Positions 11,158 to 52,298 of a stretch of 53,106 bases of DNA are shown piece after piece. The stretch lies in NCBI GenBank assembly GCA_964644555.1, contig CAZXWI010000001.1, positions 1 through 53,106 of the forward strand. Reading direction: 5' to 3'. The notes below the pieces were generated by a model, which worked only from the letters and a program-made list of their open reading frames with translations, did no database searches and was not told the origin of the DNA. The translations under genes were made by a program, and so were the position numbers. This DNA is from an uncultured Lachnospiraceae bacterium (GTDB taxonomy: Bacteria > Bacillota > Clostridia > Eubacteriales > Anaerofustaceae). Every line of letters starts with the position of its first letter. The first letter of the stretch is position 1.

Positions 11158-11195
11158 CGACCGACCGTGTCATAAGCGGTCGGTTCTTTGTTTTG
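11158..11195 (+). terminator. Intrinsic terminator of murE
   Basis: Stem ACCGACCG/CGGTCGGT (11160-11184) followed by TCTTTGTTTT. Confidence 0.7.
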
Positions 11196-11340
11196 CGAAA
11201 TTACCCAAGAGGAAAATATGTTATAATTAACATAGGTCTATAATAACATAGTATTAATTTATTTCATAGTCATTTAATAAAAAACTTGATAAAATTTGAC
11301 TCTTTTGTTTGAATCCTACGGAAACCGAAAACTTCCTCAC

Positions 11341-11378
11341 TGAAAAATCAGGCGTGTCTTAATAAGACACACCTGATT
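11341..11378 (-). terminator. Intrinsic terminator ending the 11.4-16.3 kb importer operon
   Basis: 14-bp stem ATCAGGCGTGTCTT/AAGACACACCTGAT. On the minus strand it is followed by TTTTTCA, 13 nt after the methyltransferase stop. Confidence 0.7.
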
Positions 11379-11390
11379 TGATTTAACATA

Positions 11391-12275: not shown

Positions 12276-12291
12276 TTTTATTTTTCCGTTT

Positions 12292-13116: not shown

Positions 13117-13126
13117 CTCCGTATAA

Positions 13127-13897
13127 CTAACAGACTATGCAAACATTTCGTTTGGCATCTTCGTCATATACAGTTTTAATATCGAGATTATATAATGACG
13201 AAAGCATTTCCTTATTTAGGGTATCAGCCGCATGCCCCACACCCAATACACCGTTTTTGTCAAGTATTGCAACTTTGCCGTCAAGTATAATTGCGTGATC
13301 CGGATTATGTGTAGTCATAATTACGGCATACCCCTCTTTCGCAAGTTCTTTTACCATTTGCACAACACGATATTGATTGCCGTAATCAAGATGTGCCGTT
13401 GGTTCATCAAGCAAAATAAGCTTGGGCTGTTGTGTTAAAGCTCTTGCTATGGTAACTTGCTGACGCTCTCCCCCCGATATTTCGGTATAAGCTTTGTCCT
13501 TAAGATGAAGTATATTCATTCTCTCCAGGGATTCTTCGGCTATCATATAATCCTCTTTTGACGGTTTTGAGAATGTTCCGATATAGGGTGTTCTGCCCAT
13601 AACGGTAAATTCCAATACGGTATATGCATAAGCAGGAGTATGTATCTGCGGCACATATCCTATTATTCTGGCAACATCGTTCATGCTCATTGAACTTGAA
13701 TCTTTACCGTTTAAATATATATGTCCGCTTGCGGGTTTAAACAGATTCGCAATGCAGTTCAGCAAAGTGGACTTGCCAGCACCGTTTGTTCCCAAAATGG
13801 ACAGAACCTCGCCCTCATCAAGCTGAAAACAAACATCATGAAATATAGTTCGGCTGTTATAATATTTGTAGCTTAAATCTTGTACATCAAGTATCAT
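13127..13897 (-). CDS. ABC transporter ATP-binding protein, FepC/BtuD (type II importer) family
   Basis: Walker A GTNGAGKST, signature ISGGERQ, Walker B LILLDEPT. 4-nt overlap with the permease gene. Confidence 0.9.
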   Translation of the reverse strand: MILDVQDLSYKYYNSRTIFHDVCFQLDEGEVLSILGTNGAGKSTLLNCIANLFKPASGHIYLNGKDSSSMSMNDVARIIGYVPQIHTPAYAYTVLEFTVMGRTPYIGTFSKPSKEDYMIAEESLERMNILHLKDKAYTEISGGERQQVTIARALTQQPKLILLDEPTAHLDYGNQYRVVQMVKELAKEGYAVIMTTHNPDHAIILDGKVAILDKNGVLGVGHAADTLNKEMLSSLYNLDIKTVYDEDAKRNVCIVC

Positions 13898-14940
13898 GTC
13901 AAAGTCCTGTTCTGTTTAATTAAAATGAAAATAAAGAAAGGTGCGCCGATTATACCCGTCAATACGCCCAATTTGAGTTCAGCCGTAGATAATGTTCTGC
14001 AAAGCATATCTATTATAAGCATAAAGATTGAACCCAAAAGCATTGCCATAGGAAGCATTTTTTTATTGTCAGAGCCGATAAGCATTCGGGATGTGTGAGG
14101 TATTATCAAACCTACCCAGCCGATACTGCCCGAAACACTTACGCAACTTGCGGTTATCAATGTTGAAAAGAAAATAAACATTCCTCTGGTTTTTTGAAGA
14201 TTGATTCCCAGTGAACGTGCTTCGTTATCTCCCAAAGACAAAACATTGAGTCGATAACGCATTAATATAATCAAAAAGCACGGTATCAACACCATCGGCA
14301 ATATCGACAAAAGTTCCGACATGGTTATTGTGGCAAACGACCCCATTGTCCAATAAGTGATTTCCGCCAATTGAGTATCGGTATCAGCCAAAGCTTTTAT
14401 TACACTCATTACCGATGACATAAGGCTGCTTACCACGACACCGGATAAGATAAGTATCGTAGTGGATTGACTTTTAATCAATTTCGGAATGAGCGTTGTA
14501 ATAAATACCGCCGCAATTCCTCCAATGAATGCCAAAAGCTGAATAAAGAGGCTGTTGAAATTCAATAAAATAGCAACTGCCGCCCCTATGCACGCACCGG
14601 ATGAAACCCCAAGTAAATCGGGGGATGCCATCGGGTTTTTGAATATGCTTTGATAACAAGCACCCGATAAAGCAAGCCCTGCCCCTACGACTACCGATGT
14701 CAATGTTCGGGGTAAACGCAGATTAATTACCACAGCTTCCTCGATATTCGACCATGTTTTTTTAATGCCGAAAATTTTTGATGCCAAAATTTTAATTACA
14801 TCACCCAAATTAATGCTGTATCGCCCAAGTGCAAGTGATGCGGCTACCGTCAGTAACAGAGCCGCAAACACTATGCCGACAACAACCCGATATTTTTTAT
14901 CGGAAAAATTTGTGGATTTATTGTCAATTGATTTTTTCAT
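13894..14940 (-). CDS. FecCD/BtuC-family ABC importer permease
   Basis: About 10 TM helices and conserved FecCD blocks (RLPRTL, GAGLALSG, NPMASPDLLGVSSGA, TGIIGAPFFI). Confidence 0.9.
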   Translation of the reverse strand: MKKSIDNKSTNFSDKKYRVVVGIVFAALLLTVAASLALGRYSINLGDVIKILASKIFGIKKTWSNIEEAVVINLRLPRTLTSVVVGAGLALSGACYQSIFKNPMASPDLLGVSSGACIGAAVAILLNFNSLFIQLLAFIGGIAAVFITTLIPKLIKSQSTTILILSGVVVSSLMSSVMSVIKALADTDTQLAEITYWTMGSFATITMSELLSILPMVLIPCFLIILMRYRLNVLSLGDNEARSLGINLQKTRGMFIFFSTLITASCVSVSGSIGWVGLIIPHTSRMLIGSDNKKMLPMAMLLGSIFMLIIDMLCRTLSTAELKLGVLTGIIGAPFFIFILIKQNRTLT

Positions 14941-14961
14941 TGTTAAGAATTAAAAGTAAAA

Positions 14962-16077
14962 TTAGTTAAGTTCCTGTGTTCCATCAGGAAGCAAACCGTT
15001 TAACATATTGTTAGCCTGATCTTTTGTAAGCTCAGTGCCGTTCATTGTTTTGTAAAAGCTAATGATCTGCTCTGCCATGTAATCTTTTGTTATGCCGTTA
15101 GCTTCTGCGATTTCAGGCTGGATGCACAATAAAGCGTAATCTACCTGCAAGTAGCTTTCAAGTCCGAATCTATCCCAGTTAAAGCATGCATAGGGGTTGT
15201 TGTAAACTCTGCCGTTCTGAACTGCTTTGAGGTCTTTCCAACCGTCTGATGTTGCAATCTGTTCAAGAAGCTTATGCTGATATACGCCACCAACGATGAT
15301 AACATCAGGGTTTGCAGCAAAGATTTCTTCAACTGTGATTTCGTTGCCGGCAAGATTGATAACTGCAGGTAAGTATTTACCTCCGTTTGCTTCAACCCAG
15401 TTCTGAATAATTGTATTCTGACCCATTGTAGCTGTAAGGCTGTCGCTCTGACCGGAAATGTACATAACTACAGGTTTGTCTTCATCTGCCACATTTGCAA
15501 CGAGGTTTTTGTTGTTTTCAATCTTTGTACCGACTTCTGTACACCACCAGGTGAGTTTTTCTTTGTATTCACCGCCCAAGATTTCAGCGAGCATTGTGTA
15601 TGCCTGAATCATTGTATCGTAGTTACTGAAGTTGATGTTGATTGCGGGAATACCAGCATCTCTGATCTGCTGAGCGTATCCGTCTTTAGCTGATGAAGGA
15701 TGCACGATTACCAGGTCCGGTTCGAGTTTAACGAGTTCTTCAACTGCGGGAGTTGTTCCGCCGAGGCCCTGAATTTCAGTACAACCTTCGTAGAAGAATT
15801 TTGTCCAACCGTTCATTGTTGCAGGTGTGTTCATTGCAAGACCGCTTACGAGGTCTCCTGCACCCATGACAAAGAATGAAGATGTACCTGCAGGCCAAAG
15901 GTTAACGATTGTTTTTACTTCGCCCTCGATAGTTACTTCATCACCGCTCATGTCGGTTACTGTGATTGTTCTGTTTGTAAGATCTTCTTCATTGTTTTTG
16001 GAGCTTGTGCAGCCTGCAAAAACGCTTAAAGCAATAAGAACAACTAATAAAACAGAAACTATTTTTTTCGTTTTCAT
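14962..16077 (-). CDS. Lipoprotein substrate-binding protein of BtuF/FhuD (class III PBP) type
   Basis: Signal peptide with lipobox FAGC. Two-lobe PBP blocks (LEPDLVIV, ANPDVIIVGG). Strong RBS AAGGAGAA. Confidence 0.85.
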   Translation of the reverse strand: MKTKKIVSVLLVVLIALSVFAGCTSSKNNEEDLTNRTITVTDMSGDEVTIEGEVKTIVNLWPAGTSSFFVMGAGDLVSGLAMNTPATMNGWTKFFYEGCTEIQGLGGTTPAVEELVKLEPDLVIVHPSSAKDGYAQQIRDAGIPAININFSNYDTMIQAYTMLAEILGGEYKEKLTWWCTEVGTKIENNKNLVANVADEDKPVVMYISGQSDSLTATMGQNTIIQNWVEANGGKYLPAVINLAGNEITVEEIFAANPDVIIVGGVYQHKLLEQIATSDGWKDLKAVQNGRVYNNPYACFNWDRFGLESYLQVDYALLCIQPEIAEANGITKDYMAEQIISFYKTMNGTELTKDQANNMLNGLLPDGTQELN

Positions 16078-16309
16078 ATTGTTTTCTCCTTAGGTTTTAT
16101 ATTTAAATATCATATCGATATTTAGGCAAAATAAAATGGGTTCCCGTAGTATATAAAATTTTACATACTAAAAAGGAACCCACAGTGTGCGTAAATCAAT
16201 AATATTTCACTTGCAGTATTCCTTTCCAAATACGGGAGGCAAACAAATTTCTTAGTTTACCCATCGGTTATTTTCCTTGGTCAAAGCTTTAGGAATAATA
16301 ACTCGGAAT
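16078..16309 (-). promoter_or_regulatory. Long 5' leader with internal intrinsic terminator (candidate riboswitch or attenuator, class unresolved)
   Basis: On the minus strand, GGGTTCC-TTTT-TAGTAT...ATACTA-CG-GGAACCC is followed by ATTTTATTTT, ending about 50 nt before the start codon. Upstream AAAGGAA can pair with the TTCCTTT of the terminator 5' arm. Confidence 0.45.
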
Positions 16310-16315
16310 AATTTC

Positions 16316-16344
16316 ATTATACTTAATATTCCAAAATGTTGCAA
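16316..16344 (-). promoter_or_regulatory. Sigma-70-type promoter of the importer operon
   Basis: TTGCAA (16339-16344), 17-nt spacer, TATAAT (16316-16321) on the minus strand. Confidence 0.55.
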
Positions 16345-28861: not shown

Positions 28862-30271
28862 CTATGTATTCAATGTTAAAATTTCTTTTAATATTTCGAC
28901 AACCTCTTTTATTTCATTTTCCGAAAGAGAGCCGTACCCTAAAACGAGCGTAGGCTTTCTGTTTTCATTTCGGCATAAGCGTTCATATGACCCGATCCCC
29001 TTTAGCCTAAGCCCTCTTTTTTCAGCCTCGGAGCAAATAAATTCTTCCGATAGTCTACTGTTAAACGAAGCAATAAGGTGTATTCCCGTATGTTCTCCCG
29101 AAATTTGCACATTGTCTTTGCCAAATTTTTCATATAACTCACCAACTAATAAGTCCCGCCTTTTTCGGTATATTACCCTTATTCTGAAAAGGTGTCTGGC
29201 AAAATGCCCACCCTCTATGAACTTCGCAAGCGTGTGCTGTTCCATTCGTGATACAGTTACGGCATACGAAGAAAACATCTTTTTAAACCCAGCCACCATC
29301 GACTCGGGCAAAACCATATAAGCAATTCTTATAGACGGAGCCAAGCACCTTGAAAATGTTCCGAAATATATCACCTTATCGTTGCAATCAAGCCCCTGCA
29401 ATGCGTTTATAGGCTTACGGTCAAAACGAAATTCGCTGTCGTAATCATCTTCTATTATATAATGTTCATCACTCTCTTTTGCCCAGGATAGCAATCTATA
29501 ACGGTTTGCTACAGGCATACTTGCCCCTGTAGGGTATTGGTGAGCAGGGGTTACATATACTATATCGGCAGAGCTTTGTTTTATATCCTCTATCCTAATT
29601 GATGATTCGTCTACACCGGCTAAAGCCACCTCGCACCCATTATTTGAAATAATCTCATATGCTTTTTTATATCCGGGCTCTTCCATAACAAACTTTTTGC
29701 CTCTGAAATAACAAGCTAAAAGCCCCAACAGATATTCCGAACCCGCCCCCACAAATATCTGAGTGGGTGAAGATTTTACCCCACGGTATTCATGCAAATA
29801 ATCGTTTATAGCATTTCTTAGGACATTATCCCCAAAGCCTTCGCCGTAGCCCAGTAAGCTGTCCCCATAACTTAAAACCTCTCTTTGCAGCCGACCCCAT
29901 ATTTTATACGGAAAAAGATTCGCATCGGTGCTGCCGGTTGTGGCATCATATAAATACGCTGTAACTTCGGCCTTTTCTGCATATGACTTTCGGGTGGGCA
30001 TATCTTTATTTCCTAAATATAGATCCTCATCACATACATAAAATCCGCTTTGCGGCTTAGATGAAATATACCCCTCCGATGCCAGCATTTGATATGCACA
30101 GTCCACGGTATTTACGCTCACATCCAAATTTTGCGCAAGCTTTCGCTTTGACGGAAGCTTTTGATTTTTCACAAGGTTTCCGTTTTTTATTTCATCTACG
30201 ATAAAATCGTATATTTGCATATACAGCGGCACTTTAGAGCCATAGTCCAAATCTATTGCCAAATTATACAT
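28862..30271 (-). CDS. MocR/PdxR-type regulator (GntR winged HTH fused to an aminotransferase-like domain)
   Basis: GntR HTH (LPSKRKLAQNLDVSVNTVDCAYQMLASEGYI) followed by a class I aminotransferase fold. Start set at the MYNLAIDL ATG (30271), preceded by GGAGGG. The longer ORF has no RBS. Confidence 0.85.
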   Translation of the reverse strand: MYNLAIDLDYGSKVPLYMQIYDFIVDEIKNGNLVKNQKLPSKRKLAQNLDVSVNTVDCAYQMLASEGYISSKPQSGFYVCDEDLYLGNKDMPTRKSYAEKAEVTAYLYDATTGSTDANLFPYKIWGRLQREVLSYGDSLLGYGEGFGDNVLRNAINDYLHEYRGVKSSPTQIFVGAGSEYLLGLLACYFRGKKFVMEEPGYKKAYEIISNNGCEVALAGVDESSIRIEDIKQSSADIVYVTPAHQYPTGASMPVANRYRLLSWAKESDEHYIIEDDYDSEFRFDRKPINALQGLDCNDKVIYFGTFSRCLAPSIRIAYMVLPESMVAGFKKMFSSYAVTVSRMEQHTLAKFIEGGHFARHLFRIRVIYRKRRDLLVGELYEKFGKDNVQISGEHTGIHLIASFNSRLSEEFICSEAEKRGLRLKGIGSYERLCRNENRKPTLVLGYGSLSENEIKEVVEILKEILTLNT

Positions 30272-30365
30272 ACGCCCTCCAAACTGATACCTAAATAATA
30301 TCATAAACTGAGCATTTAAAGAATACCACTTTTCTGTTATCTTATATAAATCAAAGGAGAATGAT

Positions 30366-30917
30366 ATGAAAAGCACCTCTATTAGAAAAGTAACCATGAT
30401 AGGGCTTATGTCGGCATTGGTTTTTGTGGGGACTCACATAAGAATAAAAATCCCGGTAGGGCTTGACGGAACAATGCTTCATCTGGGCAATGTTTTCTGT
30501 CTTTTATCGGGGATAATTTTCGGGCCTGTTTCAGGGGGGCTTGGTGCAGGACTTGGCAGTGCCATATTTGATTTAAGCAGCGAGTATGCCTCGGAAGTAT
30601 GGATAACATTTATCAATAAATTCGCAATGGGCTTTGTTTCGGGGTTTTTGTCAAAGCATTTACCGAAAAATCTAAACTTTACCCTATCCAAAACCATATC
30701 GGCATTGTGCGGTTCATTGACATATATTATTCTTTATATAGGAAAAACCTACATATATAACCGCTGTATATATTCTCTGCCCATTGAGGGTGTAATGGCT
30801 GTAGTCGGAGTAAAAGCCGCAGTAACTTCGGTAAATTGCTTGATTGCTGTAGTAATAAGTGTGCTATTTGCAAGGGCATTAAAAGAGCCGCTTTCAAAAT
30901 CGGGAATACATTATTAG
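30366..30917 (+). CDS. ECF transporter S (substrate-capture) component
   Basis: 183 aa with 6 hydrophobic helices and a typical S-component N-terminus (KVTMIGLMSALVFVGTHIRIKIP). RBS AAAGGAGAA. Confidence 0.75.
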   Translation: MKSTSIRKVTMIGLMSALVFVGTHIRIKIPVGLDGTMLHLGNVFCLLSGIIFGPVSGGLGAGLGSAIFDLSSEYASEVWITFINKFAMGFVSGFLSKHLPKNLNFTLSKTISALCGSLTYIILYIGKTYIYNRCIYSLPIEGVMAVVGVKAAVTSVNCLIAVVISVLFARALKEPLSKSGIHY

Positions 30918-30920: not shown

Positions 30921-30962
30921 AAAAGACCTTCGTATATTAAATTACAAAGGTCTTATTTTTAT
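30921..30962. terminator. Bidirectional terminator (ECF S gene / hydF-containing operon)
   Basis: Stem AAGACCTT/AAGGTCTT (30923-30954) with a T-run 3' on the plus strand and an A-run 5'. Confidence 0.7.
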
Positions 30963-31042: not shown

Positions 31043-32257
31043 TTACTTATTTTTCTCTTTCAAATAATCTTCGTACAAATCGGGAAGAACTTTGACTCCT
31101 CTTTCCAATATGCCATTCATATACGCAATAGCCAAGCCATAATTCGTCATCGGCACATTTTGGTCAAAAGCACATTTTGTGCGGTATACAAGCTCTCTTG
31201 TGTTGAGCATACAGCCTCCGCAGTGCAAAATAAGCGAATATTTGCTTAAGTCATCCGGAAATCCCGTGCCGCTTGAAAGCTCTATATCAAAATTTGCATT
31301 TGTTCTTTCTTTAAGCCAATGCGGTATCTTGACGCTACCGATGTCATCGCATTGCCTGTGATGAGTGCAGCCCTCCGCTATAAGCACGGTGTCGCCGTCT
31401 TTAAGCCTGTCGATTGCCGTAACCCCCATAACGGCTTCTCTTAAAAAGCCCTTGTGCCTTGCAAGCAATATCGAAAATGATGTAAGAGGAACATCATCGG
31501 GAGTAAGCTTTGAAACAAGCCCAAACACCTGAGAGTCCGTAATTACCATTTTGGGCTTTTTCGATAAAGATTCCAAAGTTTTACTAAGTTCTGTTTCTTT
31601 ACACATAGCAACGATTGCATTCGCATCTAACACATCACGCATCATCATTTGCTGGGGTAGTATCATTCTGCCTTTAGGTGCCGAAGAATCTATGGGAGTA
31701 ACCAAAACCACAATATCCCCATCAGACAACAAATCTTTTACCAAGGGAATCTCTTCATCGTTCGGTTTAAGATAAGCAAGCTTTTCTTTTAATTCGTAAA
31801 TTCCTATATTTTTTTCGGCACTGACATATATTTCATTTTCGCTTGGCTCAGAGTGGTTCGGTTTCATCTCGCATTTGTTATAAGCAATAATATAATTTAT
31901 TTTTTTATCCTCAAACAGCGAAACAAGCTCCCTATCAAGAGAAGTGATTCCCTTTTGTATATCCACCACCAAAACTGCGATATCCGTTTTATTCAGAACC
32001 TGTTTTGTCTTTTTCACTCTCAAAAGACCGAGTTCGCCCTCGTCATCATACCCCGGAGTGTCGATTATCATAACAGGCCCTAACGGCAAAAGCTCCATGG
32101 ATTTGCTCACAGGGTCGGTGGTCGTGCCTTTAGTGTCGGAAACAACCGCCAAATCCTGATTGGTAACCGCATTCACAAGGCTTGATTTTCCTGCGTTTCG
32201 AAGCCCGAAAAAACCTATATGAACCCTCTCTGCCGAGGGTGTATCGTTAAGCCCCAT
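31043..32257 (-). CDS. hydF: HydF-type GTPase ([FeFe]-hydrogenase H-cluster maturation scaffold family)
   Basis: GTPase G1 GLRNAGKSS, G3 DTPG, G4 NKCE. The C-terminal cluster motif EGCTHH...HCGGC matches the HydF CxH...HCxxC signature. Confidence 0.85.
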   Translation of the reverse strand: MGLNDTPSAERVHIGFFGLRNAGKSSLVNAVTNQDLAVVSDTKGTTTDPVSKSMELLPLGPVMIIDTPGYDDEGELGLLRVKKTKQVLNKTDIAVLVVDIQKGITSLDRELVSLFEDKKINYIIAYNKCEMKPNHSEPSENEIYVSAEKNIGIYELKEKLAYLKPNDEEIPLVKDLLSDGDIVVLVTPIDSSAPKGRMILPQQMMMRDVLDANAIVAMCKETELSKTLESLSKKPKMVITDSQVFGLVSKLTPDDVPLTSFSILLARHKGFLREAVMGVTAIDRLKDGDTVLIAEGCTHHRQCDDIGSVKIPHWLKERTNANFDIELSSGTGFPDDLSKYSLILHCGGCMLNTRELVYRTKCAFDQNVPMTNYGLAIAYMNGILERGVKVLPDLYEDYLKEKNK

Positions 32258-32286
32258 AGTATACCTCCCGATATAGTTATTTTAGT

Positions 32287-33390
32287 TTATTTGAATGCAG
32301 CAGCATCTTTGCCCGGTGAGAATATCTTTTGAGCCTGCTCATCGGTAAGGGTAATATCGAATACCGCTTCGTAATAATCTTTTGTTTCCTGAGTTATATC
32401 AATATCGCTGAAAATTTCGGGATAAACGGTTTTTGCAAGCCACATGAGCGTAACAGGAGTATCTACTCCGCAAGTATAACTTCTGTACATACCAAGGGGC
32501 ATTTTGCTTACCTTATTGTTTTCAACTGCGGCAATTCCGCTCCAATCAAAGCTGCCTATAGTATTGTTGTATAAATCATACGGCAATGCCTGGTTAAAGT
32601 TGGTAATAAGTATTCTGTCGGGATTCCATGTGTATACCTGTTCAAGGTTTACCTGAGTTGAATAAGCTGTTTCCATTTCTTCGCCGACATTTTTTGCGCC
32701 AATGGCATCAGCCCACCATTGTCCAAAGAATTTTTTGCCCGATGTGGTTATCATTGTGTCGTTATATTGGAAAAGGAAAAATACTTTTTCTCTCTCTTCG
32801 TTCGAAAGTGATGCCACTCTTTGCTGAACGAAATCATACTTTTCTTCGCTGTATTGTTTAACAAGATCGGCTCTGTCGTTTTCGGGGAATAATTCCGACA
32901 AAAGAGCTATCCAGTTGTTAAGAGTTTCTATTGCATCATAATCCCATTTGCCTGCCGAAATTCCTATAGCCGCAAAGCCCGCATCTTTAAGCTGAGTACC
33001 TATCTGTTCGGATTCGGCACTGTAGAATACAACATCGGGATCAAGTTTGATTATTTCTTCGATATTGATATTAGTTCCGTCAATAAATGCTGTCTGTGCA
33101 TTTAAAATTTCAGGATATAATTCCGATAAGAGGCTGTTCTGTGCGGCACTCATGCTCGGCTGAGCAATACCCACCAATTTTTCCGCAGAATCAAAGAATA
33201 CAGCCAAAACCGACGGAAGCGGATAAATATCGCATACGACTATACGCTCGATATTTTTCGGCACTTCCACCTCATTGTCAGCATGATCGATAATGGTTAT
33301 GGTGTCGGAAGAATTATTTCCGTTCGTTGTGCAACCGAATAACCCAATTACGGTTACTGCTACCAAAAGTAAAGCAACTAATTTTTTCAT
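32287..33390 (-). CDS. Lipoprotein substrate-binding protein of BtuF/FhuD type (paralogue of 14962-16077)
   Basis: Signal peptide plus lipobox FGC. Blocks LDPDVVFY and WNPDRILITN. ATGA overlap with the upstream K-like gene. Confidence 0.85.
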   Translation of the reverse strand: MKKLVALLLVAVTVIGLFGCTTNGNNSSDTITIIDHADNEVEVPKNIERIVVCDIYPLPSVLAVFFDSAEKLVGIAQPSMSAAQNSLLSELYPEILNAQTAFIDGTNINIEEIIKLDPDVVFYSAESEQIGTQLKDAGFAAIGISAGKWDYDAIETLNNWIALLSELFPENDRADLVKQYSEEKYDFVQQRVASLSNEEREKVFFLFQYNDTMITTSGKKFFGQWWADAIGAKNVGEEMETAYSTQVNLEQVYTWNPDRILITNFNQALPYDLYNNTIGSFDWSGIAAVENNKVSKMPLGMYRSYTCGVDTPVTLMWLAKTVYPEIFSDIDITQETKDYYEAVFDITLTDEQAQKIFSPGKDAAAFK

Positions 33391-34529
33391 TCTAAATTTC
33401 TCCTTACAAATTCATTAAAATTTTCTACCAAATTAGGTATTTCTTTTCTGTAAATTCTGCCCGAAAAAGCTTCGTGCGGCAAATTTACGAATTTCGCACC
33501 CGTTGGACAAATGGGTTTATACATCTTATCCGCAATGATGATTTTTGCCTTTTCCAAGTGCGGTATTATTTCATCTTCATCGATAGCCGAAATGCATCCG
33601 TCTCCGATAAAAATGTCATCAATGTCAGTGGCGCAAATTACATTTGCACCGTATCCCGAATGATAATAAAGTGCATTGGCTAACGAAAGCGAAGTAACAC
33701 CTTCTCCGATTATTACCACATCGTCATTCACAAATGTTTTCGGAAGATAGTTTTCTTTAGTTTCAGCCGATAATTTTATCTTATCTATAATATTATCGCT
33801 GAACTCATCACCGTATAAAGCACCTACAACATACGGGATATTAAACCTTTTCTCTAATACTTTTGCGGCTCTCATTGCACAGGACGAAACTACCAAATTT
33901 ACCTTTGCATGTTTTGCTTTAATCATATTCTCGTATGTGTCATTCATTGCCCATACAGAATTGACTTTGATATTGTTTTTCTCAAGTTTTTTTCTTAAAG
34001 ATATATCAGAACCGTTTATCGAAAAATCAAGGGGAGTAACGCCCAAAATGTTTACGCTGAGTTCATCAGATGCCACTTCGTCATCACTGCAAATTCTCTC
34101 GGCAAATTGCTCAAATGCAAGATCTGCTCCTCTGACATACGAATGCATTCCATCGGTTGGAATACCGAATGAAATTATTCCGGTATCTTCTTGTATTTCA
34201 CGGGCTATTGCAGGAATATCCACTCCCGTCATCATCGGTATGGGAGTGCCTGCTATGGCAATGAATTTCGGCTTAAGCACCTCGGCAGCCTTTTTTATAT
34301 CAGATATCAATTTGTCATCATCGCCCAATATTGCTTCGGTTTCGGTTATTGCCGAAATATATACCATGCTGTCCATGTCGTACCATCTCGGTTCGTCATG
34401 GGTGCCGTATGTGGAATTGCACCCTGATGCATCATGCATTATGCACATACCGCCCAATTCGTATAAAGCAGAACATACACCCGATGTATCCGAAGCATAT
34501 GTGGATATTATTTTAGCTGTTTGTTTCAT
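33387..34529 (-). CDS. Nitrogenase component-1-type oxidoreductase subunit, NifK/NifN/BchB-like (380 aa)
   Basis: MHDASGC block resembles the H-G-x-x-G-C motif of the nitrogenase component-1 family. Start set at the ATG forming an ATGA overlap with the upstream stop, with GGAGGG 7 nt upstream. Confidence 0.8.
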   Translation of the reverse strand: MKQTAKIISTYASDTSGVCSALYELGGMCIMHDASGCNSTYGTHDEPRWYDMDSMVYISAITETEAILGDDDKLISDIKKAAEVLKPKFIAIAGTPIPMMTGVDIPAIAREIQEDTGIISFGIPTDGMHSYVRGADLAFEQFAERICSDDEVASDELSVNILGVTPLDFSINGSDISLRKKLEKNNIKVNSVWAMNDTYENMIKAKHAKVNLVVSSCAMRAAKVLEKRFNIPYVVGALYGDEFSDNIIDKIKLSAETKENYLPKTFVNDDVVIIGEGVTSLSLANALYYHSGYGANVICATDIDDIFIGDGCISAIDEDEIIPHLEKAKIIIADKMYKPICPTGAKFVNLPHEAFSGRIYRKEIPNLVENFNEFVRRNLE

Positions 34530-35848
34530 ACACACCCTCCGCAGCCTAAACCCTTTTCGGAAATGAAAGTTTTAACATCTTTTGCATTTTCGTAAGCATC
34601 ACAAAGCATTTCGGCAAATTTGATTATTCCGTCAAAGGCATACAACCCGCCGTCCTCCACGATATTCACAAAATACTCTGTCGATGTAAAATATGCCGCC
34701 TTTTGCCCAATCGCCAAAACTTTTTCTTTTAAGTTGCGGTTTATTCTTCGCATTGATGTATGTATGCTCGGAGCTAAAATCATTTCCGGGGAAATGTTTT
34801 TTAGAATCTCAAAGTCCCTCTTTTCATCTGCAGTAACAGAATCCAGATACACCTTTTTTACATTAAAACCCTTTTTAATTAAAAGTTTAGCTAAACTGAG
34901 TGGTCTAGAAAACGCCGTGTAATCAATAACTATAGGTGTATCGCCTATCAAATCAAGCGCTTTTGCCAAAATTTGGTCGCACTTTGTTATTTCAGGAGAG
35001 TAATCTGGCATACTTACATTAAGAGCATTTGTAAGAACACTTAAATTATCAATAATTTCGTCATAATCAAAGCTAAAGGGCAAATACAAATGGGTCTGTC
35101 CGAATCTTTCGTTTAGGTACTCACCTGCTGTTTTGGCAGCCGGGAATGTGCTTATACATATTGAGCATTCTGCCATTTCAAGGTAATCTTCAAAATTTTT
35201 ATAATCCTGAATCTGCATAAGCTTATATCCGTTGTCGGTTACAAGCTTTGCAAGTTCGCTGTTGTTACTGACGGCAAAATCGCCTCCGACTATGCTAACA
35301 GCTTTTTTATTTATATCTCTTTCTTCGAGCAAGCTATATAGCCGCCTTCTCATAAGTTGATCGGGGGTGAGTCCGCTCTTTCTCATAATGGGGTTCATAT
35401 AGCAGTCGGTAAAACGAACAGTGGGAAACAATCTTCGAAGTTCGGAAAGCACGATATCCAAATCCGTCCCCATAAAATGATGCACACAGCTTGTAAACAA
35501 AAGTACTGCGGGAGGAAGTGTATTAAGCTTATTTAGTATGTCGGTAACACCATCTATTATCAAGCTTTCCATATCACCGTCAAGCACATTTTGTTCTCTT
35601 ACGGCAATGGTGGAAAACCTGTCTGACAGCCCCATTTCAGCCGCAGTTAAAACGACTCCTCTTAGACACCCCTGAGCACACACGAATATTTGGTGAGCCT
35701 CAGGCACAAGCATACCCGTATGCACAATATTCCATGTACCTCTGGCAGGAGCGGAATATTCCAATCCTGTGTCAAATAATTTCGGCAAGCTCGCATCTTT
35801 TATTTTAATATTCGGTTCGTCAATAATTTCGCCGATTTTTTTTAACAT
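34526..35848 (-). CDS. Nitrogenase component-1-type oxidoreductase subunit, NifD/NifE/BchN-like (440 aa)
   Basis: FVCAQGC block aligns by eye with the HGPxGC motif. Further Cys motifs FTSCVHHF, TDCYMNP and ECSICIS; C-terminus ends CGGCV. Start set at the ATG one nt after the NifH-like stop, with GGAG upstream. Confidence 0.8.
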   Translation of the reverse strand: MLKKIGEIIDEPNIKIKDASLPKLFDTGLEYSAPARGTWNIVHTGMLVPEAHQIFVCAQGCLRGVVLTAAEMGLSDRFSTIAVREQNVLDGDMESLIIDGVTDILNKLNTLPPAVLLFTSCVHHFMGTDLDIVLSELRRLFPTVRFTDCYMNPIMRKSGLTPDQLMRRRLYSLLEERDINKKAVSIVGGDFAVSNNSELAKLVTDNGYKLMQIQDYKNFEDYLEMAECSICISTFPAAKTAGEYLNERFGQTHLYLPFSFDYDEIIDNLSVLTNALNVSMPDYSPEITKCDQILAKALDLIGDTPIVIDYTAFSRPLSLAKLLIKKGFNVKKVYLDSVTADEKRDFEILKNISPEMILAPSIHTSMRRINRNLKEKVLAIGQKAAYFTSTEYFVNIVEDGGLYAFDGIIKFAEMLCDAYENAKDVKTFISEKGLGCGGCV

Positions 35849-35849
35849 A

Positions 35850-36605
35850 TCATTCTCCGCATACACTTATTATTTCATTTGCCAAAATTTCATATTGCTT
35901 TGCCATTTCACTTTCGGGGAAGGCTTCTATGACGGTCTTGCCAAGAGATTCGGCTTCCAAAACAATATCACTTCTATCAAGCGAACCTATTATTCTCGAA
36001 TTTATATCCGAAGCAAGCTCTTCGACCTTTTCGGTTTCGTTTTTCACATTTCTTCTGTTTAAAATAAGCCCACCGAAAGAGGAATACCCTCTTTTTTTGA
36101 ACCCTTCTACGGCAACGGCAATGTTAGCCGCCGCATGAAGCGACATATTTTCTCCCGATGTAACCACAAACACATGCTGAGCGTATCCCGGACGCATGGG
36201 CATTGTAAATCCACCGCATACTACATCACCAAGAACATCGTACAATACTATATCCGGCTTATATACTTCGTAAACGCCTTTTTCTTTAAGCTTTTCCAAT
36301 GCAGCGATTATCCCTCGCCCTGCGCAGCCGGTTCCCGGAGTAGGACCTCCTGCTTCCACGCAAATGACACCACCGAAACCAAGCCTTAACATATCATCAA
36401 GCTCAAAATCATTGCCATTTTCTCTTACCAAATCCAGTACCGTAGGTATTTTATTCTCCGAACGAAGAAGTACAGTGGAATCTGCTTTCGGGTCGCAGCC
36501 TATTTGCATTACTTTATATCCTTTTTTAGAAAGTGCAGCCGCCACATTCGAAACCGTAGTGGATTTGCCTATTCCGCCTTTTCCGTAAACAGCGATTCTA
36601 ATCAT
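35850..36605 (-). CDS. NifH/BchL/CfbC-family ATPase (nitrogenase iron-protein-like)
   Basis: P-loop [10 protein letters not shown], switch I CDPKADST, both 4Fe-4S Cys contexts ([13 protein letters not shown]). Confidence 0.9.
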
Positions 36606-37665
36606 TGACTTCTCCTTTTATGTAATCTTTATGATCTCCTCGGTCGCACACTACCTCGTAGCCTATCTGTGCCATTTGCTCTTTTAATATATTTATTCCC
36701 AATTCGGCAGTCAGATCCGTGCCGACCTTGTTATCGTAGAGCATATATTTTTTTCTGACATCACTCGGTGATATGTTCGGCATAACAACATTACATCCAC
36801 ACAACACTCCCAATTTTCGACCGTCGGCATTTGCAGTGCCGAGTGCCGTAGTAGCAGGCAAAAGCACATCGGGCAGCATAATTCGAGTTAAGCTCATTAA
36901 AAATAATGTAAGGCTCACATCTCCGCAAGGTTCTGAGCCAAAGGGGGTATCTTTATGAGAAATGAACGGTCCAATACCCACCATAGCAGGAGAAAATTCC
37001 CCTATAAAGAGCATATCCTTTGCCAAATTCTCAATGCTTTGGTATTTAACCCCCACCATAAATCCACAGCCCACCTGATAGCCTATTTCTTTTAAGTCAT
37101 TTAAGCATCTCATTCTGTTTTCATATTTTTGGTAGGCAGGGTGTATTTTTTCGTATAAATCTTTATCTGCCGCTTCGTGCCTTAAAAGATATCTGTCGGC
37201 ACCCACATTAAAAAGTTTTTCATATGAATTACGGCTGAGTTCACCCACCGACAGAGTAATGGCACAGTCGGGGTATTTCTTTTTTATATCGGATACAATA
37301 TCGCAAAGAATCTCATCTTTGTAATATGTATCCTCACCGCCTTGCAATACGAATGTGCGAAATCCATATTCGTAACCGATATCACAGCACGATAAAATAT
37401 CGTCCTTAGTAAGTCTGTAGCGATTGGCATTTTTATTGGAATGACGAATACCGCAATAGTAGCAATCGTTTTTGCAATAATTGGTAAATTCTATAATGCC
37501 TCGAAAATATATTTTCTTTCCGAATCTATCCACCGATATCTTTTGAGCAAGCTCGGAAGCATAATCAAAGTCCTGCTTGTCGTATGACGATAACAGGTGA
37601 GTCCATTCTTCAAAGCTCAAGCATTTTTCTTCATTCAATTTGTTGATAAGTTGTTTATTATTCAT
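36598..37665 (-). CDS. hydE: Radical SAM enzyme of the HydE/BioB/PylB clade (HydE-like)
   Basis: [13 protein letters not shown]3CX2C motif at about residue 65, GGE block (LQGGED), GCGFMVG block; about 355 aa. Start set at the MNNKQL ATG (37665), which overlaps the ATPase stop. Confidence 0.7.
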
Positions 37666-38749
37666 CGACACCGCACCTTTTTTGAGCAAATGTTGTTTTT
37701 ATGCTCAAATTTCCCAATATACTTAGTCTGTGAGTTAGCACCTCGGCTTCGCTCTTGGGAGAATCCAAGGTAAAGTTAATGATGTACACTCCTGCTTCCC
37801 TATATGGGATACCCATTCTGCCGATAACATATTGGTTATAAGCATGAATTTCCTTGTTGATTTTATCAGCTAATTCATAGTCGCTGAAAATTACGGCAAC
37901 AACGGCTATGACATTTTCCGAGTCATCTATTTGCTTATCTGCCTTTTTATCATCGGAAATTTGTAAAGGCATTATGTTTTTATATATATTTTCTTCCGTT
38001 TCCACTTCTCCGATAACAGCCTTAACTCCGAATACCGATTCGATATTTTCTTCCGTAACTATTTTTGCGGTTTCTCCGAAAACAGCTTCACCGTTTTTCG
38101 GTAGGAGCAATGATTTATCGGCTCGGGAAAGTGCATGAGTCGGATAATGCGTATTGAAAATGCATCCTATATTTTCACTATGAGCTAATTCCGACATGGT
38201 ATTTAACACGATAAGCTGATTTCTGAAATCCAAATTAGATTCGGGCTCGTCCAAAATCAATAGCTTGGGTTCGTTTATCAATGCTCTGGCTATCAACACC
38301 ATTTGAAGCTCGCCGCCGCTTATTTCGTTGCATTTTTTACCCGTTAAATAGGATATGTTGAGCCTTTGCATTAATCTATCGACTTTCTCATAATCTGCCT
38401 TTTTCGGCTGAGAGAACACTCCTATTTTATCGGCAAGACCCAAAAGGATCATATCTTCCGCTTTCATTGACGATGAAGTGCCCTTTGCTTGCGGCACATA
38501 AGAAACATTTTGCCAAAATTTCTTTTGGTTCATTTTGGAAATGTCCTCGCCGTCAAGAGTGCTTAACCCTTTGCTCCATTTCAAAAATCCCATTATGCAC
38601 TTGAGCAATGTAGTTTTACCTGCTCCATTAGGGCCTAAAACTGCAACCAGTTCCCCCGAATTTAGTGTAAAATTTAAATTTTTGATTATATATTTTTCGC
38701 TTTTATATCCGAAAGAAGCGTTTTCTACACATAGCTTCATAATTGCCAC
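37658..38749 (-). CDS. ABC importer ATPase (FepC/BtuD type) with C-terminal TM1266-like domain
   Basis: Walker A GPNGAGKTT, signature ISGGELQ, Walker B LLILDEPE. The last approx. 90 aa (VIAVVAVIF...VIGRMGIPYR...) are homologous to the 87-aa protein at 39743-40006. Confidence 0.85.
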   Translation of the reverse strand: MAIMKLCVENASFGYKSEKYIIKNLNFTLNSGELVAVLGPNGAGKTTLLKCIMGFLKWSKGLSTLDGEDISKMNQKKFWQNVSYVPQAKGTSSSMKAEDMILLGLADKIGVFSQPKKADYEKVDRLMQRLNISYLTGKKCNEISGGELQMVLIARALINEPKLLILDEPESNLDFRNQLIVLNTMSELAHSENIGCIFNTHYPTHALSRADKSLLLPKNGEAVFGETAKIVTEENIESVFGVKAVIGEVETEENIYKNIMPLQISDDKKADKQIDDSENVIAVVAVIFSDYELADKINKEIHAYNQYVIGRMGIPYREAGVYIINFTLDSPKSEAEVLTHRLSILGNLSIKTTFAQKRCGVDE

Positions 38750-39753
38750 CCCTCGGAACGCCTCATTAATGTGATAAAGAATGGAGCTCCGATAATTGCC
38801 GTCAACACCGATATGGGTATTTCCGCAGCCGAAACGCTCCTTGCCAAAGTGTCAACTATAACCAGAAAAGTCCCTCCTAAAATGACCGATGACGGCATTA
38901 ATAACAAGTGGTTATTGCCAAAGAGCATTCTACACATATGCGGTATCAAAAGCCCTACCCAACCGACCTGACCGCACATGGAAACGCATGAAGCGGTAAT
39001 GCCGGTGGAGCACAGAACGCAAACTACCCTGAGTAAATTGATATTAACTCCCGTGGCACGAGCCTCTTCTTCGGAAAGAGGCAAAATATTAAGCCGCCAG
39101 CGCATTAACAAAAGAATAGTTATTCCGATTATTATTATGGGCGAACCCAACAATAGCGATTTATAATTGGCAGCCGATAAATTACCCATAAGCCAATATG
39201 TTATTTCGGGTAGTTCACTTTCCACATCGGCGGTAAATTTCACCAAAGATATCAATGCCGAAAATAGAGAACCTATCATTATTCCTGCCAAAACCACATT
39301 GCTCAAGGCACTTTTTGACTTACTTTTGCCCGAAAGCACGGTAAGCACTACAGCAAGAATGCCGAAAAACAACGATACAAATTGAACTCCAATGAGTTCG
39401 AATCCCAAAAGCAGACCTAAAGCCGCCCCAAATGAAGCCCCCGATGCCACACCCAATGTATCGGGGGTTGCCAAAGGGTTATTAAATAGGCTCTGAAAAG
39501 TGCATCCTGCAGCAGAAAGCCCGGCTCCTGCCAAAAATGCGAGCAATATTCTCGGAAAGCGAATACTCCATAAAACCCGCTCCGTTTGATTTGATAACAC
39601 TTCTCCTCCGAATATGTGAACCTTAATCGATAAAATAACATCCCCTACCGATACATTCATTCGCCCTATGCATAAACAGCACAGTATAGTGAAAACAGGC
39701 AAAATTATCAAAATAATCTTTGATAATAAAGACATTTTGTTACTACTTTTCAT
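38737..39753 (-). CDS. FecCD/BtuC-family ABC importer permease
   Basis: FecCD blocks RFPRIL, GAGLSAAG, NNPLATPDTLGVASGA, TAIIGAPFFI. Start uncertain: 39789, 39753 or 39735. 39753 gives an 11-nt overlap with the upstream gene. Confidence 0.85.
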   Translation of the reverse strand: MKSSNKMSLLSKIILIILPVFTILCCLCIGRMNVSVGDVILSIKVHIFGGEVLSNQTERVLWSIRFPRILLAFLAGAGLSAAGCTFQSLFNNPLATPDTLGVASGASFGAALGLLLGFELIGVQFVSLFFGILAVVLTVLSGKSKSKSALSNVVLAGIMIGSLFSALISLVKFTADVESELPEITYWLMGNLSAANYKSLLLGSPIIIIGITILLLMRWRLNILPLSEEEARATGVNINLLRVVCVLCSTGITASCVSMCGQVGWVGLLIPHMCRMLFGNNHLLLMPSSVILGGTFLVIVDTLARSVSAAEIPISVLTAIIGAPFFITLMRRSEGWQL

Positions 39754-40006
39754 CTTTGTAAACAACTCCCGAATATGCCGTTTTGGCACTTATTCCGTTA
39801 AGGCGACCTATTTTACCGGATATGGCGCTTATTATATCCTGTGGTGCATCAACCGCAACACTCAAAATATTGATTCCTCTCTTTCGATACGGAAGTCCCA
39901 TTCTGCCTATTATATATTCGCCGTATTCGTGAAGTATCCCATTGAGAGATTCCACCGAATCCGTATTTTCTACTATAATTCCTATGACGGCAATTCTTGT
40001 TTCCAT
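39743..40006 (-). CDS. TM1266-family small protein ('iron-only hydrogenase system regulator' family, ACT/NikR-C-like fold)
   Basis: 87 aa, RIAVIGIIVEN...IIGRMGLPYRKRGINILSVAVDAP pattern. RBS AAGGAG 7 nt before the ATG. Confidence 0.7.
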   Translation of the reverse strand: METRIAVIGIIVENTDSVESLNGILHEYGEYIIGRMGLPYRKRGINILSVAVDAPQDIISAISGKIGRLNGISAKTAYSGVVYKDEK

Positions 40007-40145
40007 ATTCGCTCCTTAAAAAATAAACTGCACCCTTAAAGATGCAGTTATCCCTTAGCATTGCTACAACGTTGTAACTCAAAAGAAAAATTATTTCTGC
40101 ATCTTCCATCTCAAAACGAATTTTCAATGTTAGAATACTTATTTA
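40007..40145 (-). promoter_or_regulatory. 5' leader with mutually exclusive terminator and antiterminator hairpins
   Basis: Minus-strand RNA has AACTGCA-tctttaaggg-TGCAGTT followed by TATTTTTT directly before the RBS. Upstream AAGATGCAG (40097-40105) is perfectly complementary to CTGCATCTT (40039-40047). The palindrome TACAACGTTGTA lies between them. Confidence 0.5.
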
Positions 40146-40152
40146 CATATTT

Positions 40153-40182
40153 ATTATACTATGATTTTCACCTTGCCTGCAA
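40153..40182 (-). promoter_or_regulatory. Sigma-70-type promoter of the nitrogenase-like operon
   Basis: TTGCAG (40177-40182), 18 nt, TATAAT (40153-40158) on the minus strand. Confidence 0.5.
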
Positions 40183-52211: not shown

Positions 52212-52298
52212 GCGAATATGGCGGAATAGGCAGACGCGCATGGTTCAGGTCCATGTGGAGGCGACTCCATGCAGGTTCAACTCCTGTTATTCGCACCA
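52212..52298 (+). tRNA. tRNA-Leu (anticodon CAG), type II with long variable arm, CCA encoded
   Basis: Acceptor GCGAATA/TATTCGC, anticodon stem CATGG/CCATG with loop TTCAGGT, variable arm GGAG-GCGA-CTCC, T-loop TTCAACT, 3' ACCA. Confidence 0.9.

Follow-up and report, generated by a model that had tools for sequence, protein, structure and literature searches.

A widespread operon of anaerobic Bacillota combines a nitrogenase-like reductase, a type II ABC importer, HydE and HydF behind a candidate attenuator RNA

Background

The nitrogenase-like systems listed in a review of July 2026 are Nfa, Cfb, Mar, Isr and DPOR/COR (PMC13474568). According to the same review, three of the six known reactions of the nitrogenase family reduce tetrapyrroles, the Group IV-A system Nfa represents a non-canonical clade able to fix N2, and the characterised Group IV systems Nfa, Mar and Isr each have a radical S-adenosylmethionine (SAM) 'B' partner; a function for Group VI has only been proposed, and of the clades IV-D to IV-F, which in 2020 were of unknown function, IV-F has since been assigned to Isr. 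HydE and HydF are never mentioned in it. Here we describe a nine-gene operon in which genes for a nitrogenase-like reductase stand together with hydE, hydF and genes for an ATP-binding cassette (ABC) importer and for proteins with TM1266-type domains. It lies in a stretch of 53,106 nucleotides (nt) from an uncultured Lachnospiraceae bacterium (contig CAZXWI010000001.1 of assembly GCA_964644555.1), called the window below. Its genes are referred to by single letters in the order T-P-A-E-H-D-K-S-F, which stand for the TM1266-family protein, the permease, the ATPase, HydE, the Fe protein, the two component-1-like subunits, the substrate-binding protein and HydF.

The closest described systems each share a part of this composition. 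MarBHDK and IsrBHDK (clades IV-C and IV-F) combine an Fe protein with heteromeric DK subunits and a radical SAM partner, act on a small-molecule substrate and have co-regulated ABC importers. In DPOR (BchLNB), COR and CfbCD an ATP-driven Fe protein feeds an inter-subunit cluster of the [4Fe-4S] type. Group VI, which is found in Elusimicrobia with many B12/HemN radical SAM genes, differs in gene context, as far as a comparison by description allows. HydE, HydF and a leading TM1266 gene occur together in operons of Thermotoga, Marinitoga and Coprothermobacter, and an ATPase with an additional C-terminal regulatory domain is found in trans-inhibited importers of the MetNI type. Importers of the FecCD/Peripla_BP_2 kind typically carry siderophores, haem or B12. 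In Clostridia, finally, so-called 'pseudo-nifH' genes have been recognised, to which no function has been assigned and which distort nifH-based surveys (PMC8597730).

An earlier note on the window, made from its sequence (hereafter the original prediction), had proposed that the nine genes form a single pathway, no characterised system of such composition being known. Neither the review nor the full-text literature, subscription-only papers lying outside this scope, yielded a characterised cluster of the same composition or a paper that treats HydE or HydF together with a nitrogenase-like enzyme. One further publication (PMC10338468) concerns Anf3 and NimB and was set aside as irrelevant.

Results

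The region 31043-40006 is filled by nine minus-strand open reading frames (ORFs; Table 1), which are tied to one another by short junctions. The stop of T at 39743 faces the ATG of P at 39753, and P and A overlap by 13 nt if A starts at GTG 38749 or in an ATGA if it starts at ATG 38740. A is joined to E by ATGAATAA (37658-37665), E to H by ATGATTAG (36598-36605) and H to D by TGAtATG; D and K overlap in ATGA (34526-34529), as do K and S (33387-33390), while S and F are separated by a gap of 29 nt that contains GGGAGG. For D and K the orthologue alignments favour the short starts, ATG 35848 and ATG 34529. The nine genes, their domains and all start and stop junctions of the original prediction could be re-derived without discrepancy, its downstream hairpin terminator was also called by our scan, and the absence of hydA, hydG, nifB/E/N/V and bch genes was borne out for the ORFs of at least 90 amino acids (aa) in the window. 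Its promoter claim stood only in part: the -10 element TATAAT is perfect, but the -35 element TTGCAG matches the consensus at three of six positions, a consensus promoter scan made no call at this site, and promoter-like matches in the region (35) were not above those in shuffled sequence (30.3). The site lies about 15 nt 5' of the leader motif described below and is compatible with a transcription start near 40146. Entirely missing from the original prediction was a leader attenuator, the terminator-like hairpin followed by a U-run that we found in the 5' leader just before the ribosome-binding site of T.

D-like proteins have more than 4100 database matches, with 432 clusters at 50% identity at E<=1e-30, and a scan of one genome per GTDB species confirmed relatives in at least 581 species genomes. 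Among the matches listed, the carriers are mostly gut and rumen Lachnospiraceae, Oscillospiraceae and Ruminococcus, next to Blautia, Intestinibacter, Mogibacterium, Erysipelotrichia, a Flexilinea metagenome-assembled genome (MAG), Loigolactobacillus and acetogenic Clostridium. For the comparison of loci we used the best 80 that carry D-like relatives, and conservation of the neighbourhood, a point on which the original prediction was open to refutation, is evident there: the order T-P-A-(E)-H-D-K-S-(F) is kept in most of the 80. The importer genes lie 5' of HDK in 47 of 54 loci. A and H flank hydE in 45 of 62, with about 27% having no hydE in the cluster, and hydF follows S in 36 of 57 and is not in the cluster in about 37%; at some loci both are absent from it. 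The constant core of the cluster is T (free or fused), the ABC importer and H/D/K, with HydE and HydF as frequent but facultative members. All-against-all clustering of the flanking ORFs of these loci revealed no further conserved gene, the top clusters being antisense artefacts of high-GC genomes.

Because dozens of species have this gene order in common, the arrangement is more than chance, and translational coupling, a single leader with an attenuator and conserved synteny together argue that the genes form one co-regulated unit, as the original prediction had concluded from the coupling. That the nine genes constitute one operon under attenuator control, with a wide distribution in anaerobic Bacillota, is thus well supported.

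Two lineages depart from the common layout. Loigolactobacillus binensis (L081, 86-16508) has the order P-A(t)-E-H-D-K-S-S-S-S-D2-K2-S-S-F, that is, six S paralogues with mutual identities of 46-71% and two DK pairs (67-70% identical) alongside one H. Within the Lactobacillaceae, Loigolactobacillus, including L. rennini (L071), is a genus with the full cluster. The acetogens C. carboxidivorans, C. drakei, C. ragsdalei and C. muellerianum carry orthologous HDK (71%, 53% and 51% identical) in the order H'D'K'-HypF-HypC-HypD-HypE-HDK, with feoB about 6 kb downstream. In [NiFe]-hydrogenases the Fe(CN)2CO unit is the product of the Hyp proteins; hypA, hypB and hydrogenase structural genes were not found within 10 kb of these acetogen loci. 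As the association is confined to one lineage, it is only suggestive.

H shows all the marks of the NifH/BchL/CfbC superfamily: the P-loop GKGGIGKS, Cys94 and Cys130 are present in at least 97% of 83 orthologues, in which the docking residue Arg97 is likewise conserved, and H looks like a functional Fe protein. It belongs to none of the named families, however, scoring 325 bits with the nifH model TIGR01287 (cut-off 394), 316 bits with the CfbC model NF033200 (cut-off 402) and below the cut-offs of BchL and BchX as well. Its best match in the Protein Data Bank (PDB) is MarH (9fmg_D, 251 bits).

D and K are more divergent. D matched no NCBIfam model whatsoever, those of CfbD and the nitrogenases included. 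Its AlphaFold model (mean predicted local distance difference test, pLDDT, 85) has the component-1 fold, and Foldseek places it at a template modelling (TM) score of about 0.6 and 11-15% identity to NifK, VnfK, NifN, NifE, ChlN and MarD alike. For K the best NCBIfam match is NifE (TIGR01283, 73 bits against a cut-off of 505), followed by the true-nitrogenase models NifD/NifK, VnfD and AnfD (at most 60 bits, cut-offs 486-823), the DPOR/COR models BchN/B/Y/Z (51 bits, cut-off 490), CfbD (TIGR03282, 42 bits, cut-off 268) and NifN (TIGR01285, 23 bits, cut-off 327); the profile of the K family reaches 81 bits with NifD of C. pasteurianum. The model of K (pLDDT 82) has Foldseek TM scores of 0.58-0.71 to NifE and BchB. 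Taken together, the models of D and K are equally far from NifD/K, VnfD/K, AnfD/K, NifE/N, BchN/B and MarD/K (TM about 0.55-0.7, 11-18% identity). The labels D and K are arbitrary: D is beta-like in structure, yet it is D that has the Cys aligned with Cys124 of NifE, and K is NifD/NifE-like in sequence, yet has a Pro there. Four representatives of 850-1010 aa (P0336, P0368, P0390 and P0416) are about twice the usual length and may be D-K fusions; two of them have two stretches that match the D profile.

Cysteines conserved in D are C63, C67, C127, C155 and C442, of which C63, C67, C127 and C442 are listed as invariant; C127 aligns with Cys124 of NifE, and at its C-terminus D has an invariant GCGxC tail, which is disordered or flexible (pLDDT 31). 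In K, C21 and C39 are conserved, and a Pro and a Ser stand at the positions equivalent to the P-cluster ligand Cys154 and the iron-molybdenum cofactor (FeMo-co) ligand Cys275 of NifD (A. vinelandii numbering). D and K thus have Cys at inter-subunit cluster ligand positions of NifE/NifD and NifK, a pattern that would fit one Fe-S cluster between the subunits.

Compared with the described systems, H is nearest to MarH among solved proteins and, by its score, close to CfbC. D and K share no more than 12-16% of their residues with MarD and MarK (the D profile matches MarD, 9fmg_A/9d9u_A, with E 0.24; the K profile scores 45 bits), the radical SAM partner here is HydE instead of a NifB homologue, the importer is of the FecCD type whereas those of Mar and Isr are of the sulfonate type, and Mar and Isr have no counterpart of HydF, the TM1266 domains or the leader RNA. 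The likeness to DPOR extends to the structure (K-BchB TM 0.66-0.71 at 13-17% identity); unlike in DPOR, COR and CfbCD, scores stay under the cut-offs, tetrapyrrole biosynthesis genes are not nearby, and the substrate would be imported. With NifH/NifEN the operon shares the best NCBIfam match of K, the aligned Cys127 of D and a place of NifEN among the top structural matches, but scores of 65-73 bits fall short of the cut-off of 505, the equivalent Cys is missing from K, and nifX, nifB and nifDK clients are absent. Membership in canonical nitrogenase, CfbCD, DPOR, NifEN and Mar was therefore rejected on family scores. The original prediction would have failed had D and K fallen inside the canonical NifDK or NifEN clades with a full nif regulon elsewhere; they lie outside, with no NCBIfam cut-off reached and the low identities to solved relatives given above. 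It is well supported by these comparisons that H/D/K represents a deep-branching nitrogenase-like two-component reductase with H as the putative Fe protein and D and K as the putative catalytic subunits.

E and F, by comparison, are orthodox. E has the radical SAM CX3CX2C motif (CKNDCYYC) and aligns with T. maritima HydE (PDB 5few) over residues 12-324 (313 aligned, 292 bits). All three HydF domains are matched in F (PF01926, PF18128 and PF18133, the GTPase, dimerisation and tetramerisation domains), and it scores 349 bits with T. melanesiensis HydF (PDB 5kh0), the cluster motif EGCTH...HCGGC being aligned. Both score far above the equivalog cut-offs and keep the cluster motifs of the crystallised enzymes, so that the HydE/HydF paralogues assumed in the original prediction are not evident. 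By sequence HydE and HydF appear canonical, and those of the cluster are probably the cell's ordinary maturases.

The assignment of S, P and A to a BtuCDF/FecCD-type (type II) importer is well supported, as the predicted FecCD, Peripla_BP_2 and ABC domains all score above the gathering thresholds. The importer proteins reached no specific NCBIfam equivalog cut-off; the best matches of P are BtuC, FecCD and FhuB. The best PDB matches of S are 4ovk, an unnamed binding protein (158 bits), and MolA/HI_1472 (77 bits), followed by binders of iron, nickel and B12. S is strongly conserved, and among 66 orthologues many Trp, Tyr and Phe are invariant and no His, Cys or Met. Like BtuCD-F, MolBC-A, FecBCDE and the trans-inhibited importers of the MetNI type, the system has a permease of the FecCD family, a lipoprotein of the Peripla_BP_2 family and an ATPase that carries an additional regulatory domain at its C-terminus; it differs from them in that this domain is TM1266-like and that the S gene is set apart from P and A and coupled to the reductase genes by its overlap with K. 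This overlap and the co-amplification of S and DK in L. binensis suggest that DK acts on what S binds, and the assumption of the original prediction that the imported compound is the substrate of the reductase gains support from them.

A second type II importer operon is present in the window (11391-16077, minus strand), where a Peripla_BP_2 binding protein, a FecCD permease and an ATPase are followed by a WtpA-like tungstate-binding protein and a SAM methyltransferase behind a molybdenum cofactor (Moco)/tungsten riboswitch (16203-16320, minus strand, 74 bits). It is paralogous to the importer of the nine-gene operon (permease 42%, binding protein 25% identical), and a FecCD-type importer under Moco control is unusual.

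The TM1266-like domain of A comprises residues 281-352 (about 37694-37909) and scores 59 bits when taken alone. The fusion is present in most orthologous loci, and to our knowledge a TM1266-like domain on an ABC ATPase has not been described before. T, of 87 aa, matches the structure of T. maritima TM1266 (PDB 2nzc) with E 1e-10, and a domain scan gave no similarity to NikR_C or ACT. Among the 80 loci, those whose ATPase is without the fused domain always have a free T gene where upstream sequence is available, and the ATPase fusion is present at two loci that have no free T gene. That the operon encodes two putative ligand-sensor domains of the TM1266 type, one free and one fused to the ATPase, is well supported.

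The leader motif is a hairpin consisting of the two-pair P0 (C-G, U-A), tandem G.A/A.G, the P1 of four base pairs, a purine-rich asymmetric internal loop with G on its 5' side and GA on its 3' side, and an A-U stem. It precedes the operon in 43 of the 55 loci for which the upstream sequence is long enough. In an alignment of 36 loci, 88.9% of the cells were paired, as compared to 79.8% after shuffling (0 of 500 shuffles as high), double-sided changes numbered 31 as opposed to 8.9 in shuffles, and slid controls paired at 24-50%; P1 occurs as CAUC/GAUG, CGUC/GACG, CACC/GGUG, CGCC/GGCG and UAUC/GAUA. A covariance model found 53 matches in 1.34 Mb, all on the operon strand, one of them in the window, and all directly 5' of T or, at loci lacking T, of P or E; the motif thus stands only before the operon. 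Two copies are present in locus L034 (5554-5594 and 5929-5971), before and after the T gene, and in L028 (6000-6041) the motif lies between T and the permease gene, a layout that recalls the hutP type.

The predicted antiterminator strand is the 3' tail of the motif, AAGAUGCAG (40105-40097), whose sequence is complementary to CUGCAUCUU (40047-40039), the terminator's 5' arm. In the minimum-free-energy fold the motif hairpin and the terminator coexist (z = -3.05). Over 44 loci the duplex of tail and terminator arm was more stable than with shuffled tails (mean z -1.9, Wilcoxon p 1e-10, a value that overstates independence as the loci are related), whereas the longest contiguous pairing of the tail with G-U allowed was no better than that of shuffled tails (7.45 versus 7.25). 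These properties are those of an anti-antiterminator OFF switch, a polarity inferred from folding. PyrR- and HutP-type attenuators and small riboswitches are built alike, with a conserved hairpin that sequesters the antiterminator strand 5' of an intrinsic terminator; the present leader differs from PyrR/HutP-type attenuators in sequence and internal loops, and its effector candidates are the T protein or a small ligand. The leader and six related ones matched no family of Rfam 15 at gathering or permissive thresholds, and the RNA appears to be a new, previously undescribed attenuator. Only the model of the PyrR binding site gave matches, and these are weak (17.8 and 20.5 bits, the gathering score being 54); they lie at 40017-40122 (minus strand) of the window and at 7886-8000 of L087 and probably reflect the common architecture of anti-antiterminator and terminator.

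Relatives of T. maritima TM1266 are first genes of operons in other phyla, too. We found T-HydG in Cloacimonas and one other MAG, T-HydG-x-HydE-HydF in Coprothermobacter, T-HydG-HydE-HydF-lyase in Marinitoga, T-EamA in an Ignavibacteria genome, and T-TonB-dependent receptor-EamA on two metagenome contigs, one with a T named 'Bacteroidetes bacterium' by NCBI and the other with an operon that adjoins feoAB. In six of seven such loci, the Ignavibacteria locus L086 being the one where it was not found, T is preceded by the motif CCUGnGAUGArGGA...UCUGACAUCAAGGG and then a terminator, the hairpin and U-run of which are evident at five of these six loci. This motif contains the strands of the window motif in swapped order, that is, as a circular permutation, its 3' tail is likewise complementary to the 5' arm of the terminator, and it matched no Rfam family. 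Clostridial T proteins are only 25-33% identical to TM1266-family T elsewhere, the invariants common to both groups being His26, Arg35, Gly37, Pro39, Gly64 and Gly67. Compared with the TM1266-headed hyd operons of Thermotoga, Marinitoga and Coprothermobacter, the operon described here shares HydE, HydF, the leading TM1266 gene and a related leader with terminator, but HydG is replaced by the ABC importer and H/D/K, and the RNA motif is permuted. Leader RNA and T gene therefore seem to form one regulatory module, which by its genomic positions would control hydG/E/F or, in other lineages, outer-membrane uptake systems, and in the present case the importer-HydE-HDK-S-HydF operon.

The neighbours of the operon are unrelated to it. 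On its 5' side lies a sugar ABC/FGGY/BtpA operon with a terminator of its own, and on its 3' side are a convergent gene for an energy-coupling factor (ECF) S-component of the riboflavin type (30366-30917, plus strand) and a MocR-type regulator gene (GntR helix-turn-helix and aminotransferase; 28862-30397, minus strand). These two are divergent and overlap by 32 nt at their 5' ends, and they may be a regulator and transporter pair for vitamin uptake. A tRNA gene (52212-52295, plus strand, Rfam 51.9 bits) stands at the window edge beside the ffh/rpsP region.

Table 1. Positions of the operon features in the window and of related loci elsewhere
Feature	Position	Strand	Evidence
Promoter-like site	40153-40182	-	TTGCAG, 18-nt spacer, TATAAT; read directly
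Conserved leader RNA motif, 43 nt	40095-40137	-	covariance model 50.5 bits, E 7e-10
Leader intrinsic terminator (candidate attenuator)	40018-40049	-	scan: hairpin 40049-40026, 10 pairs and U-run
T, stand-alone TM1266-family protein	39743-40006	-	TIGR03959 112.8 bits (cut-off 60.8); PF21699
P, FecCD-family permease of type II ABC importer	38737-39753	-	PF01032 278 bits
A, ABC ATPase with C-terminal TM1266-like domain	37658-38749	-	ABC_tran 118 bits; PF21699 55.6 bits
E, HydE-type radical SAM enzyme	36598-37665	-	TIGR03956 534 bits (cut-off 254.6)
H, NifH-like Fe protein	35850-36605	-	PF00142 294 bits
D, divergent nitrogenase component-1 subunit	34526-35848	-	PF00148 45 bits
K, second divergent component-1 subunit	33387-34529	-	PF00148 107 bits
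S, lipoprotein substrate-binding protein, Peripla_BP_2	32287-33390	-	PF01497 52 bits; lipobox LFGC
F, HydF-type GTPase scaffold	31043-32257	-	TIGR03918 547 bits (cut-off 325.6)
Operon terminator	30923-30954	-	scan: hairpin, 12 pairs and U-run
Permuted motif, L082	7900-8000
Permuted motif, L083	7895-8000
Permuted motif, L084	7885-7945
Permuted motif, L085	7905-8000
Permuted motif, L087	7890-8000
Permuted motif, L088	7905-8000
Acetogen locus L055, C. carboxidivorans P7 (likewise L042, L073, L075, L080)	1501-12474		two HDK sets flank hypFCDE, same direction

Discussion

But what would a nitrogenase-like reductase do in an operon with an importer and two hydrogenase maturases? The original prediction saw in it a single pathway; the leader and TM1266 module, however, is common to hydGEF operons in other phyla, which points to a link with [FeFe]-hydrogenase maturation and not to a pathway standing by itself. 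We tentatively favour, while stopping short of calling it probable, the reading that H/DK reduces a metal chelate brought in by the importer and that this serves the regulon of [FeFe]-hydrogenase maturation in an accessory role, the TM1266 domains and the leader providing feedback. The lipoprotein S would capture an external metal-containing chelate, which P2A2 would import. By ATP hydrolysis H would then drive low-potential electrons to the imported compound by way of an Fe-S cluster that Cys residues hold between D and K, and the reduced product, either released iron or a processed iron/ligand precursor, would feed the HydE/HydF steps in the assembly of the [2Fe]H subcluster. H/D/K and the importer module would in this way make up an accessory supply arm of the maturation regulon. 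When product or ligand accumulates, the ATPase-fused TM1266 domain would trans-inhibit uptake, and the leader hairpin would simultaneously be stabilised, through direct action of the ligand or through the T protein; the stabilised hairpin would sequester the antiterminator strand, so that the terminator forms and the operon is switched off. The link to maturation is suggested because HydE and HydF are canonical and often in the cluster, because TM1266 and the permuted motif head hydG/E/F operons, and because the HDK genes of the acetogens stand beside hypFCDE.

Several observations weigh against this proposal. Neither HydA nor HydG was found within 10 kb in the 80 loci by a search for the HydA L1-L3 motifs and a BLAST search for HydG-like proteins. 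Among characterised proteins S is closest to MolA, which binds molybdate/tungstate, and not to a siderophore or haem binder. The acetogen orthologues are without a linked importer, T gene or leader motif, and the hyp association itself is limited to a single Clostridium lineage. The polarity of the switch, as stated above, derives from folding only, and iron uptake is normally controlled by Fur and not by riboswitches. E and F may have a role here that is unconnected with hydrogenase. Finally, maturation of the H-cluster has reportedly been reconstituted in a defined system that is described without a nitrogenase-like enzyme (PMC12501116); any role of the operon in this process would thus be accessory.

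A more far-reaching version, that the nitrogenase-like reductase takes part directly in organometallic iron cofactor chemistry under a new, permutable RNA and TM1266 regulon across phyla, strikes us as doubtful, if well worth bearing in mind. It could do so in either of two ways, by salvaging or activating an imported iron precursor of [2Fe]H, or by carrying a cofactor of the Fe-CO/CN type built by HydE/HydF (or HypCDEF), and the doubt extends to both.

The operon might, on the other hand, serve stand-alone salvage, in which an imported tetrapyrrole (haem, a chlorophyll derivative or a corrinoid) or a very low-potential ferric siderophore is reduced by H/DK for general metal use. The metal would be released or remodelled, hydE and hydF would be mere housekeeping co-members, and TM1266 and the leader would sense the metal or the ligand. 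Tetrapyrroles are prominent among the known substrates of the nitrogenase family and, together with siderophores, among the usual cargo of such importers; H scores nearly as high with CfbC as with NifH, the invariant residues of S are rich in aromatic ones, the multiple S copies recall multi-siderophore or multi-corrinoid uptake, and some operons with TonB-receptor genes, including one that adjoins feoAB, likewise have a TM1266 gene in first place. Yet salvage leaves unexplained why hydE is placed between the ATPase gene and H in 73% of the loci, why the RNA/T module controls hydGEF elsewhere and why hypFCDE is a neighbour in the acetogens, and S offers no invariant His, Cys or Met to a metal, though an axial Tyr ligand would still be possible. 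We consider this explanation unlikely, but a serious competitor to the supply of hydrogenase maturation.

Rather improbable in our view is a self-contained system, in which DK, as a NifEN-like scaffold or as the catalytic component, carries a cofactor that is built by HydE and delivered by HydF, the importer supplies the metal, and some substrate is reduced; HydE would take the place of NifB and the cofactor would be organometallic or an unusual Fe-S unit. Such a system would fit the radical SAM 'B' partners of the characterised Group IV systems, as HydE is the sole radical SAM gene here and nifB is absent from the window, and it would also accommodate the closeness of K to NifE among the NCBIfam models, the flexible GCGxC tail of D and the adjacency of the acetogen HDK to the Fe(CN)2CO-building HypFCDE. 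Against it speak the loci from whose cluster E, F or both are missing, the lack of divergence of E and F from the hydrogenase maturases, and the Pro and Ser at two cofactor or cluster Cys positions of NifD in K; the co-amplification of S and DK, moreover, argues for a relation to the substrate and not for metal supply.

An oxyanion route, by which molybdate, tungstate or a related ion is taken up as by MolBC-A and H/DK, like NifH/NifEN, inserts the heterometal into an Fe-S precursor, is improbable. MolA is the best characterised PDB relative of S, K is NifE-like, and the window holds the paralogous importer with its Moco/tungsten riboswitch and WtpA-like protein. That riboswitch-controlled paralogue is itself less MolA-like, however (26 bits), nifB, nifV and homocitrate genes are lacking, the leader of the operon is not a Moco riboswitch, and nothing links Mo or W to HydE, HydF or TM1266. 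Cryptic nitrogen fixation by an unusual nitrogenase, for which one might cite the gene order of a NifH-like followed by two component-1-like genes and the precedent of Nfa, is very improbable indeed, given that D and K stay under every nitrogenase model, that K has Ser for the FeMo-co Cys and Pro for the P-cluster Cys, that nifB/E/N genes are missing and that clostridial genomes with 'pseudo-nifH' are not those of diazotrophs (PMC8597730).

Conclusions

Judged by its sequences, the operon would work like the class of nitrogenase-like reductases and yet it fails every tested equivalog membership of the nitrogenase family; its combination with hydrogenase maturases, a type II importer with putative TM1266 regulation and a new RNA element is undescribed. 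It is the likely home of many of the clostridial 'pseudo-nifH' genes behind skewed surveys of gut, rumen and sediment, and it places them in a testable context, that of an importer, a reductase and hydrogenase maturases under what appears to be one RNA switch. In C. difficile RT078 a nifH gene (J5O10_08590) is two locus tags away from an iron ABC permease gene (J5O10_08600; PMC11633334, Table 1), and a TM1266-family regulator (J5O10_11210) is encoded elsewhere (PMC11633334). C. difficile may thus carry a version of the cluster which, if real, would provide a tractable model organism. The leader and TM1266 module is a candidate for a new regulatory element, be it a riboswitch or a protein-dependent attenuator, and its ligand would reveal what the 'iron-only hydrogenase system regulator' senses. 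If the link to the H-cluster is true, the operon would be a hitherto unrecognised contributor to how gut fermenters mature their main H2-producing enzymes and would extend the chemistry of the nitrogenase superfamily.

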